Notes under the pieces: model-generated
Told to the model about the DNA's origin: nothing
The model's database searches: none
The model's input: only the letters and a program-made list of their open reading frames with translations
Shown: positions 39,959 through 43,687 of the stretch, piece by piece
Numbering within the stretch: position 1 is the first letter of the stretch
How the letters are laid out: each line of letters begins with the position of its first letter
From: Alphaproteobacteria bacterium
GTDB taxonomy: Bacteria > Pseudomonadota > Alphaproteobacteria > Rs-D84
Direction of reading: 5' to 3'
DNA: 64,000 bases
NCBI GenBank assembly: GCA_017463185.1
Contig: JAFTPS010000013.1
Coordinates: forward strand, 3,826 to 67,825
Translations under genes and position numbers: made by a program

Positions 39959-42900
39959 ATGAAACGTATCAAAATTTTTCTGATTTCATTATTTATGGCG
40001 ACGGCGGCTAACGCAGCTAGCGGTGATTTTATGATGGCGGCGCAATTGTTGGCAGCGGCTAAAAGTGCCGATATTCAGCAGGTGCAAAGCCTGGTCAATA
40101 ATGGGGCGAATATAAATTTTGTGGATTCAACGGGGCTGTCTATTGTTTGTACGGCGTTGATGAACAATGATGTGCGCGCGGCACAAATCTTGCAAATGTA
40201 TGGGGCGGATGCGTCTAGATGCGACAGTCAAATCAAACAGTATAATAAAAAAAATAAATCAAAGGGCAGTGGTGGATTGTTTAGCGGACTGTCGTCTGCC
40301 CAGACCATAAGTTTAGCGGCGGCGGGGGCCGCCGTTGTTGTAGGGGGACTGTTTTTATTGACAGATGTGTTTGATCCGGGTAATGACAACGAATCGGGGA
40401 CGTCTGGTGGAAATCGTCCAGATAATAATAATGGTGGTGGTTCATCTGGGGGGGCAGGAACAGCTTTTGTGACTGTGCCATACAGTCCGGCATATCTGGG
40501 GACTGATGGTAATGTGACGACCAGTGATGCCACATATCAGGCGAATTTATTGGAATGGGACCCTTCTGCGGGCGGTGTGCGCGAGTGGGACTTTAATTAT
40601 TTTCGCCCCACGGTTCAGACAGAAAATAATTATTTGGTGGATGGGATAAAATTACCAATGCAGAACTATTTGCTGATGATGCACGGATACGCTGCGTTTG
40701 CAAATGAATATCTGGGCCAGAAAATATTCCGTAATGAAATAACCAATAATCCTGTATTGGTGGCGAATGACGCCGGTGGTGGCGTGCCGGTGATTGTGGG
40801 ATTGGTGACGGCAAATGGTGTAAATGCGACGGGGGCGGCCGCACGTGGTGATGGAATAGAATACGCAAACAGTGCAGCGGCTGATGCGACGACTTATTTG
40901 CTGGATAAATATTTGAATTATAATAATCCCTCGTCCGGTGTGCTGGGGGCGGAAATTGCGGGTTTTGATTTTTCGGGTTCTGGGACCGCGATGAATCCGT
41001 TCGCGTCTGCATATGACAGTGCGCTGGGGAAAATCGTTGCAGGTTGGAACGCGGGCGGTCGCTCGTACGGTGATTTATTTGGTTTTGTGCCAAATGGTCG
41101 CCTGGGGGTGTACAGAACCGGTGGTGGCACCGAATGGATATCCATTGCTGACCCAACGGCGGGGGGCGCGGTTGGGACCCTGACCGATGTTGATGGCACC
41201 GCCGGCGTGATAGAGGCTGGTGATACAATCACCATAAATGGTATAACATATAATATAGAATCTGCATTGACCGATACCACGGTCGTAAATCCAACTATTA
41301 CGGTCAATGGCACAACATATAAATTGGCGGATGGTACAAATATGTTAAAGGGTGTCTGTACCAGTGATACCGACGGGGCATGTGATGATGTTTCCGATAT
41401 TGCGATTTATGTTGGTGTGGAAAGTGCGGGTAACAGCAAGTATTATTATGTAAATACCACCGGTGGTGACACGGTGGATGCTGTTTATACGGTAGATTCT
41501 AATAATATTTACAAACAAAAAGAATTGGTTGATTCCGATTATAAAAATTTCCAGGCTTTGTATGCGGGACGTTCGGTCAGTAATGTGTTGGCAAATGTTT
41601 CTGTAATAGAACCATCACGTGATGCTAATTATTTGACTGTGAATGAAATGCCGGCTTTATTAGCGTTAAGTTCCGCCAGTGACACCGAAACATTTATGGC
41701 ACAAATAGATTCCGTTTATGACCGCAATAGCGCGGATACTATGACCCAGGGTGCATATGCAAATTCTATGTTTAATGGATATGGGGCGTCTTCTCCAATT
41801 TTGGTTATGCCGGCCGGTGAATTTGAATTTGGCAGTGGGACTGGAAAATCTTTGTCCGTGTTGGATGCTACTTTTGAAAATTATGCACCGGTAATATATG
41901 GGGCAAATTTGGAACATAACTTTATGACCGTGGTTGCGGTTCAGCATTCAGTGGGTACCACGGCGGCTGGTTCAATTGGTGCGTATGGTAATGGAATTGG
42001 GGATAATTATGGGCCACTGTATTTATCTATGTGGACCGATACCCAGGGTACAGATAATACCGACGATGATGTTTTATATTCCGCGCGTAAATGTGGTGTC
42101 GCTGGATTGGGAATAAATGGTATTGACCCGTGGTGTTTTTCCGCCGCCGGTGCGACATCTGAAATGGCCACCGCCAGTGCCGCTGGTGCTGTTGCCGCAC
42201 TGAAAGGCGCGTTTGATTATATGAGTAATAAACAAATATTTTATTTAATGGCCCTGACCGCTGACGGTTGGATGCTGGGGACGGATGACAGTGGCACGGC
42301 ATTTACATCCGATACTTTGGCAAATTATTTACAGGCTATGTATTCTTTGCCACCCGAATATTATGCCGATACACTGGATTCAGAAGCGTATCTGGCCGCC
42401 TTTGCAGAAGTGTATGGTTATGGCCTGATAAATCTGGACCGCGCAATGCGCCCCAATCACAAGGTTTATTATTATAATGGAACGGATATTGTTTCGGCTG
42501 ATGGAAATGCATATTGGCGGGCCGCTTCAAATACGGCATTTCGGTCGTCGTCGGTACTGAATCCACGCGGGGTATCTATTGCGGCACCGTTCTTTGATAT
42601 TTTGGAAAGTGTTGATGGCAAAATGTCTTTGCCACGCGTGTGGGAAAATTCGTTTGCGCTGGGGGCGGCTGATGCGCGGGCGTTATATATGGGTGATGTG
42701 TTGGGCGAACTGACCACGCGTCGCGATACGGCGCGTCGTGTTCAGATCGGAAATATTGGTTTTTCAATGGCTATGTCTGAGCGCGCATATGTTGATAATA
42801 TGAATGGCTTGGATAATATGTCGTTGGATTATCGTATTGGTAATTGGAATTTTGGTGCGTCGTATCAGCATTACTTTACCGATGGGGTATCGCGTTTTAC

Positions 42901-43687
42901 GGGGTTGTCTAATCCTGTGTTGGGATTGGCGACGAATGTTGTGACATCGGACGTGGCATATAACTTTGGTAATTGGACTTTTGGAACGCGGGCGTTTTCT
43001 GGGGCTATAACGGACGAGGGTTTATTAGAAAATGATCCGACTATTTCATCGCAGTATATGCCAGCAAAGTTAGGTTTGATGCAGGGGGCGGAATCTAATG
43101 TTGGGTGGAAAAACGATAAATTTATGTTTTCAGCATCTGTTGGTACGGCTGTGGAATCCGATACCCTGTTGGGGGCGCAAAGTGGTGGCCTGTTAAATCT
43201 GGGGACGGGTGATACGACATATGTTGATGCGTTGGCAAAATATAATGTCGCAGATGATATTACACTGACGGCGCGTGCAACATTTGCGCGCACGGTGTCC
43301 GATGCGTCGGGTGAATTTATTCTGGGGTTGACGGATATAGAATCAAATGCATTTGCTTTGGGGGCCAGTATTGGAAACTTTGATTTTGCCGTGTCGCAAC
43401 CGTTAGCGGTGCATCGCGGGGCATTGCGCTATGCTGCGGCCGACTATGAAATTGTGGATGATTTGAATGGGGGGTACGAATTAAATATTGTTGATACACG
43501 TATTGCGGATTTATCCCTGCGTCCGGAAAGTCGTGAAATGCGGTTTAATATGACTTATCGCCATAATTTTGGTGAATTTACCGATGGGGCAATTGGATTT
43601 ATATATCGCATAAATCCAAACCATACGGATGAATTTGGTAATGAGTCTATATTTATGATGAAATTGACACATAGGCTCGGAATATAA
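39959..43687 (+). CDS. Large secreted protein (1242 aa). Order of parts: signal peptide, ankyrin repeat, Gly/Asn linker, subtilase (S8)-like domain (possibly catalytically degenerate), C-terminal beta-barrel-like (autotransporter-like) region.
   Basis: Signal peptide MKRIKIFLISLFMATAANAA. Ankyrin-like DIQQVQSLVNNGANINFVDSTGLSIVCTALMNNDVRAAQIL. S8-like blocks VAVQHSVGTTAAGSIGAYGNG (His block), AGATSEMATASAAGAVAAL (Ser block), GYGLINLDRAM. The last 450 aa or so have alternating-hydrophobic strands (YRIGNWNFGASYQHYF etc.). Start moved from the ORF-track 39794 to 39959. Confidence 0.55.
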   Translation: MKRIKIFLISLFMATAANAASGDFMMAAQLLAAAKSADIQQVQSLVNNGANINFVDSTGLSIVCTALMNNDVRAAQILQMYGADASRCDSQIKQYNKKNKSKGSGGLFSGLSSAQTISLAAAGAAVVVGGLFLLTDVFDPGNDNESGTSGGNRPDNNNGGGSSGGAGTAFVTVPYSPAYLGTDGNVTTSDATYQANLLEWDPSAGGVREWDFNYFRPTVQTENNYLVDGIKLPMQNYLLMMHGYAAFANEYLGQKIFRNEITNNPVLVANDAGGGVPVIVGLVTANGVNATGAAARGDGIEYANSAAADATTYLLDKYLNYNNPSSGVLGAEIAGFDFSGSGTAMNPFASAYDSALGKIVAGWNAGGRSYGDLFGFVPNGRLGVYRTGGGTEWISIADPTAGGAVGTLTDVDGTAGVIEAGDTITINGITYNIESALTDTTVVNPTITVNGTTYKLADGTNMLKGVCTSDTDGACDDVSDIAIYVGVESAGNSKYYYVNTTGGDTVDAVYTVDSNNIYKQKELVDSDYKNFQALYAGRSVSNVLANVSVIEPSRDANYLTVNEMPALLALSSASDTETFMAQIDSVYDRNSADTMTQGAYANSMFNGYGASSPILVMPAGEFEFGSGTGKSLSVLDATFENYAPVIYGANLEHNFMTVVAVQHSVGTTAAGSIGAYGNGIGDNYGPLYLSMWTDTQGTDNTDDDVLYSARKCGVAGLGINGIDPWCFSAAGATSEMATASAAGAVAALKGAFDYMSNKQIFYLMALTADGWMLGTDDSGTAFTSDTLANYLQAMYSLPPEYYADTLDSEAYLAAFAEVYGYGLINLDRAMRPNHKVYYYNGTDIVSADGNAYWRAASNTAFRSSSVLNPRGVSIAAPFFDILESVDGKMSLPRVWENSFALGAADARALYMGDVLGELTTRRDTARRVQIGNIGFSMAMSERAYVDNMNGLDNMSLDYRIGNWNFGASYQHYFTDGVSRFTGLSNPVLGLATNVVTSDVAYNFGNWTFGTRAFSGAITDEGLLENDPTISSQYMPAKLGLMQGAESNVGWKNDKFMFSASVGTAVESDTLLGAQSGGLLNLGTGDTTYVDALAKYNVADDITLTARATFARTVSDASGEFILGLTDIESNAFALGASIGNFDFAVSQPLAVHRGALRYAAADYEIVDDLNGGYELNIVDTRIADLSLRPESREMRFNMTYRHNFGEFTDGAIGFIYRINPNHTDEFGNESIFMMKLTHRLGI

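Follow-up and report, generated by a model that had tools for sequence, protein, structure and literature searches.

We favor, with moderate confidence, the reading that a gene in the gut alphaproteobacterial order Rs-D84 encodes an exported, outer-membrane-anchored pseudo-subtilase that works by binding. The gene lies within a 64,000-nucleotide stretch of DNA (positions 3,826 to 67,825 of contig JAFTPS010000013.1, GenBank assembly GCA_017463185.1; hereafter, the window, whose coordinates are used throughout) as a single open reading frame (ORF) on the forward strand at 39959-43687, with 1242 codons plus stop, an intact frame and the N-terminus MKRIKIF. In the proposed mechanism, Sec would export the protein by way of its N-terminal signal peptide, and the machinery for beta-barrel assembly (BAM) would insert the barrel at the C-terminus into the outer membrane. 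This barrel would then tether a non-catalytic domain, which may bind through its former substrate cleft and a beta-rich insertion, and also a highly conserved ankyrin module, which would engage a conserved partner. A preliminary description, made from the sequence alone, had proposed a fusion of ankyrin, subtilase-like and C-terminal barrel parts. This layout proved right, as intact relatives share it and AlphaFold2 (AF2) models match subtilases and outer membrane barrels. The predicted parts, all on the forward strand, are as follows.

39959..43687, forward: coding sequence, 1242 amino acids plus stop (ORF call; 595 homologs)
39959..40015, forward: Sec-type signal peptide, residues 1-19, read from sequence (MKRIK, hydrophobic core, ANA before the putative cut and A after it)
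40034..40234, forward: two ankyrin repeats, residues 26-92 (Pfam Ank_4, matches to designed ankyrin repeat proteins (DARPins), alignment to the ankyrin module of canonical relatives)
40235..40372, forward: Lys-rich stretch and Gly/Ala-rich hydrophobic helix, residues 93-138, core 110-135
40373..40486, forward: acidic, G/N/S-rich low-complexity linker, residues 139-176
40487..42448, forward: predicted subtilisin-fold (S8-derived) pseudo-protease domain with large insertions, residues 177-830
41111..41563, forward: beta-rich insertion, residues 385-535, after the His-helix strand and before the core helix of S8 that comes next
42416..42448, forward: GYGLINLDRAM, conserved S8 C-terminal block (canonical YGHGLVNLEAA)
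42449..42574, forward: pre-barrel segment, residues 831-872, with short strands and one 4-residue helix (DSSP of the AF2 model)
42575..43684, forward: predicted outer membrane beta-barrel of about 16-18 long antiparallel strands, residues 873-1242, ending in THRLGI

A subtilisin-like domain that has lost its catalytic residues

Profile comparison and structure prediction both point to a subtilisin-like alpha/beta fold of S8 descent for the middle domain. When the family of the window protein was aligned to bona fide S8 relatives with hhalign, the match reached a probability of 100% (E 1e-39) over residues 709-1240, bearing out the preliminary description where it had taken the region of a supposed Ser block and the GYGLINLDRAM tail to be homologous to S8. 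Larger profiles (67 family against 121 canonical sequences) extended the alignment to full length at E 3e-50. The AF2 model of residues 170-835, built from a 50-sequence alignment, has a predicted local distance difference test score (pLDDT) of 92.8 and a predicted template modeling score (pTM) of 0.94, and its top 50 PDB matches in Foldseek are all subtilases, led by fusolisin (8axg, E 3e-5) together with Ssp (8e7f). Single-profile searches, on the other hand, do not see this ancestry: in Pfam, the window protein has no Peptidase_S8 or Autotransporter match at E<=10, and PF00082 is absent at E<=0.1 in seven divergent family members. The preliminary description had tied its subtilase assignment to a hit by an S8 hidden Markov model (HMM) and, taken literally, this result goes against it; that yardstick is too strict, because the profile-profile and fold evidence show S8 ancestry.

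The catalytic positions were mapped by full-length hhalign to the relative P0215, with column counts over 67 family sequences. They lie on the forward strand.

40808..40810, forward: T284, at the catalytic Asp position (P0215 D293); T60/S6/A1 in the family
40979..40981, forward: S341, at the catalytic His position (P0215 H332) by hhalign; variable, S35/A14/N7 and others
41819..41821, forward: E621, at the oxyanion-hole Asn position (P0215 N439); E50/D8/other 9
42161..42163, forward: E735, at the catalytic Ser position (P0215 S520); E52/G4/D3/Q2/S2 and others

By this mapping, the Asp-His-Ser triad and the oxyanion Asn are all substituted, and we regard the domain as a pseudo-protease; in the canonical relatives, D, H, N and S are all kept in 121/121. 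The secondary structure of the model fits the mapping, with a strand at 279-284 that ends at T284, a helix at 351-361, a strand at 614-618 that precedes A-G-E621, and a helix at 734-751. The S341 column is followed by an 11-residue insertion in the window protein, and placing the His by the N-terminus of the helix gives A351 or Y352 instead, neither of which is His. Across columns 339-343 and 351-357, there is a single His among the 67 sequences, and no His or Ser in the middle domain is invariant or at least 90% conserved in the 50-sequence alignment. The suspicion of an inactive subtilase raised in the preliminary description is supported by the substitutions at all four catalytic positions, and its remark that the Asp block was not obvious is explained, as no such block exists and the position is held by T284. 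Its choices of His and Ser blocks fared less well. The motif MMHGY aligns with the S8 N-terminal helix, and its H242 varies (H49/R7/S4/G4/N3); S734, which it had taken for the catalytic Ser, is variable too (A36/S10/T8/D7/G6) and stands, in an ungapped alignment, one residue before the Ser column at E735. Two other assignments, PVLVANDAGGG for the Asp block and L356 for the His position, were superseded by the larger profile alignment and by the strand and helix positions of the model (T284; S341/A351).

With every catalytic residue lost, the domain therefore probably binds and does not cut. We consider it very unlikely that it is still an enzyme in which T284, E621 and E735 form a new catalytic or metal-binding center, for instance a water-activating carboxylate pair. 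Asn155 and Ser221 are adjacent in the active site of subtilisin, and it is these neighboring positions that E621 and E735 occupy; among members with at least 60% identity, moreover, residue 621 is acidic in 40/41 (E38, D2) and residue 735 in 41/41. However, G, A, Q, S, P, L, M, R and W turn up at these two sites among the divergent members (32-51% identity), there is no family-wide conserved nucleophile or general base, and the Ser-Glu-Asp pattern of sedolisins is unmatched because the Ser itself is lost. Since the two Glu residues hold steady only among members of at least 60% identity and drift in divergent ones, a conserved new catalytic site is unlikely.

Descent from a family of active proteases with their own barrel

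Our alignments indicate that the window protein descends from a widespread, unnamed proteobacterial family of active S8 proteases that carry their own C-terminal barrel. An exhaustive HMMER search with residues 95-1242 returned 118 representatives, the weakest of which match over the C-terminal third only. When ten of these weakest matches were scanned against Pfam, nine were strong Peptidase_S8 proteins (E 1e-36 to 1e-62), and four also have an N-terminal ankyrin module above the Pfam cut-offs. The relatives are built from a signal peptide, the ankyrin module, a Lys/Arg-rich stretch, a Gly/Ala-rich hydrophobic segment, a Gly-rich linker, the S8 domain and about 410 amino acids that end in Phe; ankyrin is present in P0215, P0216, P0233 and P0206, and absent from P0201, P0213, P0281 of Noviherbaspirillum and P0347 of Aromatoleum. 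These canonical relatives are spread across Proteobacteria (Noviherbaspirillum, Aromatoleum, Thioglobus), and their sole annotation is “S8 family serine peptidase”. In NCBIfam, the S8 domains look like mycosin, EprS, dentilisin and fusolisin; no model there covers the relatives themselves, and the matches to the S8 domains never reach the barrel. As a group in their own right, the proteins P0201-P0355 are proteobacterial S8 peptidases of about 700-990 amino acids with an intact active site, an OprB-like C-terminal barrel of about 410 amino acids and no Autotransporter domain.

The window protein and these relatives are homologous over their full length and share the same domain order, with the ankyrin module optional. 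They differ in that the relatives keep D/H/N/S in 121/121, end in Phe, pass the Pfam S8 model and lack the large insertions, whereas the window protein has T/S/E/E at the catalytic positions and a C-terminal Ile and goes unseen by that model. Synteny shared with an active canonical relative was tried as a test of inactivation in situ and set aside, the genomic context of P0215 being unrelated. The annotations “S8 family peptidase” and “ankyrin repeat protein” thus hide a widespread group with a self-encoded porin/OprB-like barrel in place of an autotransporter domain, which prompts one to ask if barrels of this kind serve to export the domains N-terminal to them or only to anchor them, a point that PlpD has recently reopened.

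A large C-terminal barrel resembling OprB and porins

By modeling and sequence comparison, the barrel resembles large OprB/porin-like barrels and is not a 12-stranded autotransporter domain. The AF2 model of residues 831-1242 (pLDDT 87.5, pTM 0.84) is nearly all beta, with 18 DSSP strands of at least 7 residues, and in Foldseek it matches the 14-18-stranded outer membrane barrels BcsC, Omp32, AlgE, OprB, OmpT, FadL and OmpG; the 12-stranded autotransporter EstA appears at rank 39 only. In Pfam, OprB (PF04966) matches 5/16 homologous barrel segments with a best E of 1.2e-10, and the relative P0216 reaches 39 bits where the cut-off is 22.9, with no match for the barrel of the window protein itself. 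PF03797 is absent from the window protein, from the 16 barrel segments and from 10 stand-alone barrel relatives, and a barrel-only profile found 0 matches among PDB sequences at E<=10. No long pore-spanning helix is predicted before the barrel, the DSSP assignment of residues 831-872 showing no helix longer than 4 residues. The final residue is Ile in 58/67 family sequences and Phe in 100/121 canonical relatives.

The preliminary description had expected an autotransporter-type barrel of roughly 450 amino acids that does not end in an aromatic residue, and had allowed that the region might turn out to be globular. The model matches outer membrane barrels, which settles the choice in favor of a barrel, and the protein does end in Ile. 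The autotransporter type, in contrast, has to be given up: the region has 412 amino acids and about 16-18 strands, resembles BcsC, AlgE, OprB and porins, and has neither PF03797 nor a predicted pore helix.

The N-terminal part

The N-terminus has the features of a cleaved Sec signal, and the same pattern of n-, h- and c-regions with an AxA motif can be read in the relatives; the ankyrin module that follows should therefore be exported. The module consists of 33-residue helix-turn-helix repeats that match Ank profiles. Pfam Ank_4 scores 20.6 bits in the window protein, slightly below the cut-off of 22.7, relatives of the protein exceed the Pfam Ank cut-offs, and single DARPin chains match residues 27-90 at E 1e-6 to 1e-8 in a search of PDB sequences. 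That search matched designed ankyrin proteins only (residues 26-90), the listing for the family profile against the PDB was swamped by DARPins, and an NCBIfam search of the protein returned nothing useful. The preliminary description had called the ankyrin part eukaryote-like and typical of effectors of intracellular bacteria. The repeats stand, at about residues 26-92, but the effector flavor does not, given that the organism is a gut Rs-D84 bacterium and that a Sec signal precedes the module.

Behind the repeats, the hydrophobic helix has small residues at i/i+4 spacing (G110, A114, S118, A122, then G130). It is present only in family members that also have the ankyrin module, the canonical ankyrin-bearing relatives included. 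Its flanks, Lys-rich on the N-side and acidic on the C-side, resemble those of a signal anchor, in conflict with the N-terminal signal peptide, and a crude estimate of the insertion energy of residues 110-135 is about 0 kcal/mol, compared with +0.9 to +3 kcal/mol in canonical relatives. We rejected the idea that this helix is a stop-transfer anchor of the inner membrane, as a cleaved signal peptide together with an outer membrane barrel at the C-terminus rules it out on topological grounds and the energy is borderline. Stop-transfer at this point would leave the barrel in the cytoplasm, and the helix must therefore pass Sec.

Conservation and integrity of the gene

The protein has 595 homologs, and among the best 120 of these nearly all are 1210-1290 amino acids long with 58-70% identity, two of them annotated as “ankyrin repeat domain-containing protein” from “Alphaproteobacteria bacterium”. 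We found the gene at 16 genome loci of “Candidatus Enterousia” and other uncultured gut Alphaproteobacteria (human, yak, rumen), and the roughly 600 homologs belong to gut Alphaproteobacteria of the order Rs-D84 (Ca. Enterousia). Identity to the window protein differs strongly by region (given for close and divergent members, respectively). It is highest in the ankyrin module (86% and 68%), followed by the hydrophobic segment (79% and 48%), the C-terminal part of the S8 domain (74% and 54%), the barrel (64% and 41%), the beta insertion (56% and 30%, and missing from half of the divergent members) and the linker (48% and 31%); the signal peptide is the least conserved region (46% and 30%).

The gene is bracketed by the following signals.

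39866..39885, forward: terminator-like hairpin closing the upstream gene g39123
39907..39935, forward: promoter-like site TGGACA-17-TAACAT, TG-extended, upstream of the gene (consensus match only)
43691..43705, forward: terminator-like hairpin directly 3' of the stop codon

Because there is a hairpin before it, a promoter-like site and a hairpin after the stop, the gene looks like its own transcription unit. Some gene callers choose a longer start (MRFLSGQ...; 1264 amino acids in the homolog P0001), which overlaps the hairpin at 39866-39885; a transcript from it would cross the T-tract of that terminator.

Taken by themselves, the lack of any Pfam domain above threshold and the non-catalytic residues at all four catalytic positions might suggest a gene in decay or a false ORF call. 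We give this almost no credence, and conservation has already refuted it: the 1242 codons are intact and have their own promoter-like and terminator-like signals, 595 full-length homologs of 58-70% identity exist alongside divergent ones, the AF2 models are of high confidence, and synteny is kept. Rs-D84 bacteria have genomes of <1 Mb, and a lifestyle as obligate symbionts or parasites has been inferred for them, as has dependence on a partner, with many membrane proteins for cell-cell interaction (PMC12306168). In genomes of this size, a 3.7-kb gene that belongs to a conserved envelope-gene block of about 11 kb is probably not dispensable.

On which side of the outer membrane?

We lean slightly toward a periplasmic placement of the N-terminal domains over a surface-facing one. 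The class of the barrel and the lack of any helix longer than 4 residues before it favor the periplasm, as does the fact that the ankyrin module, the putative tip of a displayed protein, is the most conserved and not the most variable part. In SLH-OprB fusions, the N-terminal domain is periplasmic. PlpD likewise shows that an enzyme domain can remain on this side when a large barrel is fused to it C-terminally (PMC11116518). If periplasmic, the window protein would act as an envelope scaffold or tether together with its Cys-rich and OmpA-domain neighbors, and not as a surface adhesin. Three considerations pull the other way. The S8 domains of the relatives are nearest to autotransporter subtilases (EprS, fusolisin, Ssp) and mycosins; the 830 exported residues have no Cys pairs but three of short range, a pattern also seen in autotransporter passengers; and an uninhibited active subtilase, such as the canonical relatives have, would be more expected outside the cell.

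The alternative that the preliminary description had in essence put forward is an autotransporter-like adhesin at the cell surface, in which the pseudo-subtilase and ankyrin parts would be threaded through or alongside the barrel and bind a ligand on a host or partner cell. We hold this to be possible but doubtful. The order of the parts, passenger N-terminal and barrel C-terminal, is the expected one, the nearest structures to the S8 part are passengers of autotransporters (fusolisin, Ssp), the NCBIfam matches of the relatives include EprS and fusolisin, and the Cys pairs are short-range only. In addition, insertions of this kind are typical of subtilase autotransporters (PMC9977779), and the inferred partner dependence of the organism, with its many membrane proteins for cell-cell interaction (PMC12306168), would suit an adhesin. 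However, PF03797, a 12-stranded barrel, a predicted pore helix and an aromatic C-terminus are all missing, the N-terminal parts known from fusions to OprB-type or 16-stranded barrels, PlpD and SLH-OprB, are periplasmic, and the supposed distal tip is the most conserved region. A bolder variant, which we consider improbable, is that the barrel is an unrecognized type V-like self-export module of proteobacterial S8 proteases, which in Rs-D84 would display the dead subtilase while the Gly/Ala “zipper” helix enters a partner or host membrane and the ankyrin module comes to lie on or in that cell. If true, it would make the protein a single-polypeptide device for attachment and effector delivery in partner-dependent bacteria.

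Returning to the outer-membrane-anchored pseudo-subtilase that we favor, several observations weigh against it or against details of it. The Foldseek template modeling scores (TM-scores) are low (0.14-0.27 in the S8 part and 0.3-0.4 in the barrel), which stems from the insertions and from barrel register. hhalign aligns the Asp block and the surroundings of the His position with no more than moderate confidence, the spatial layout of T284, E621 and E735 comes from alignments and DSSP strings only, and the same holds for the placement of the pre-barrel segment. Finally, neither a periplasmic nor a surface topology explains the Gly/Ala-rich hydrophobic helix.

Gene neighborhood and other features of the window

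A six-gene block around the gene recurs at 16/16 Rs-D84 genome loci, most often with all six genes, and may be an envelope or attachment module. Besides the pseudo-subtilase gene, it comprises the following.

32840-36136, reverse: 1098-amino-acid Cys-rich protein with CarboxypepD_reg and a C-terminal OmpA domain (Pfam, synteny)
36167-38065, reverse: 632-amino-acid Cys-rich exported protein (synteny)
38088-38978, reverse: 296-amino-acid Cys-rich exported protein (synteny)
39123-39839, forward: g39123, 238-amino-acid transmembrane/coiled-coil/(KPT)n protein (synteny)
43792..44205, forward: g43792, 137-amino-acid protein downstream of the pseudo-subtilase gene (synteny)

The four smaller proteins of the block (632, 296, 238 and 137 amino acids) have no Pfam match, and a search of PDB sequences with g39123 (238 amino acids) and g43792 (137 amino acids) gave nothing significant.

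The surrounding window is ordinary chromosome, with genes for EF-G, EF-Tu, SecY, LepA, FabF and YceG. At 46646-47725 on the reverse strand lies a member of the choloylglycine hydrolase family (CBAH, E 2e-64) with a signal peptide directly followed by Cys, whose product looks from its sequence like an exported enzyme of the bile-salt-hydrolase/penicillin-V-acylase kind. The CBAH gene is found 0.2-7 kb from the pseudo-subtilase gene at five loci, directly downstream of it in two (L003, L012), which may reflect general synteny. Between the two genes, at 44829-46622 on the forward strand, is a 597-amino-acid secreted protein with repeats of about 25-30 amino acids (IPxxLFxGIxGAPxxxMFxxTFxxCSGLTGS) and an LRR/BspA-like look, which has no Pfam match and was not found at the syntenic loci. 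Farther away, a 335-amino-acid ORF at 5613-6620 on the forward strand matches a phage-type integrase in its Arm-DNA-binding and central domains only, the catalytic domain giving no match, and a tRNA-Pro at 10060-10136 on the reverse strand is a few kilobases from it; together, they may be what is left of an integrated element. Over the translation-gene region (window 1-32000), GC skew is strongly positive (0.12-0.27); it is negative after about 52 kb (52000-64000), tracking gene orientation.

Comparison with known systems

One group of counterparts is the subtilase autotransporters of type Va (Ssp 8e7f, fusolisin 8axg, EprS, NalP, SphB1), with which the window protein shares an S8 domain with insertions that lies N-terminal to a self-encoded outer membrane barrel, as well as the Sec signal. 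It departs from them in the family and strand number of the barrel, in the pore helix and in the aromatic residue at the C-terminus: in type Va proteins, the barrel is 12-stranded, belongs to PF03797 and has a pore helix, the triad is active and a beta-helical stalk is usually present, whereas the window protein has a predicted OprB/porin-like barrel of about 16-18 strands, no stalk and a dead active site. A second group, OprB porins, SLH-OprB, BcsC and PlpD, resembles it in having a C-terminal barrel, of at least 16 strands in these proteins and a predicted 16-18 or so in the window protein, after a non-barrel domain. We know of no S8 or ankyrin domain in these families, and the window protein has no POTRA, TPR or SLH domain.

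With regard to the loss of activity, CspC and CspA were the only well-known bacterial pseudo-subtilases that we found in the literature. These proteins of Clostridioides difficile have the S8 fold and an incomplete triad and serve in binding and signaling, not cleavage (PMC6636752, PMC7200643). The window protein resembles them in both fold and triad, as a functional analogy only, since CspC and CspA come from a Gram-positive bacterium, are soluble proteins of its spores, lack both barrel and ankyrin, and are not orthologous to the window protein; in line with this, the NCBIfam CspC_non_triad model does not match the window protein. Full-text literature searches for a fusion of S8 with an OprB-like barrel, or for an outer membrane pseudo-subtilase, returned only papers on autotransporters, PlpD and Csp proteins. 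The window protein is thus an unusual, previously unannotated variation on known kinds of protein, and its parent architecture is itself uncharacterized. If our reading holds, it extends bacterial subtilisin-fold pseudo-enzymes beyond the Csp germination proteins of C. difficile to an outer-membrane-anchored form that is found in a whole order of gut bacteria.

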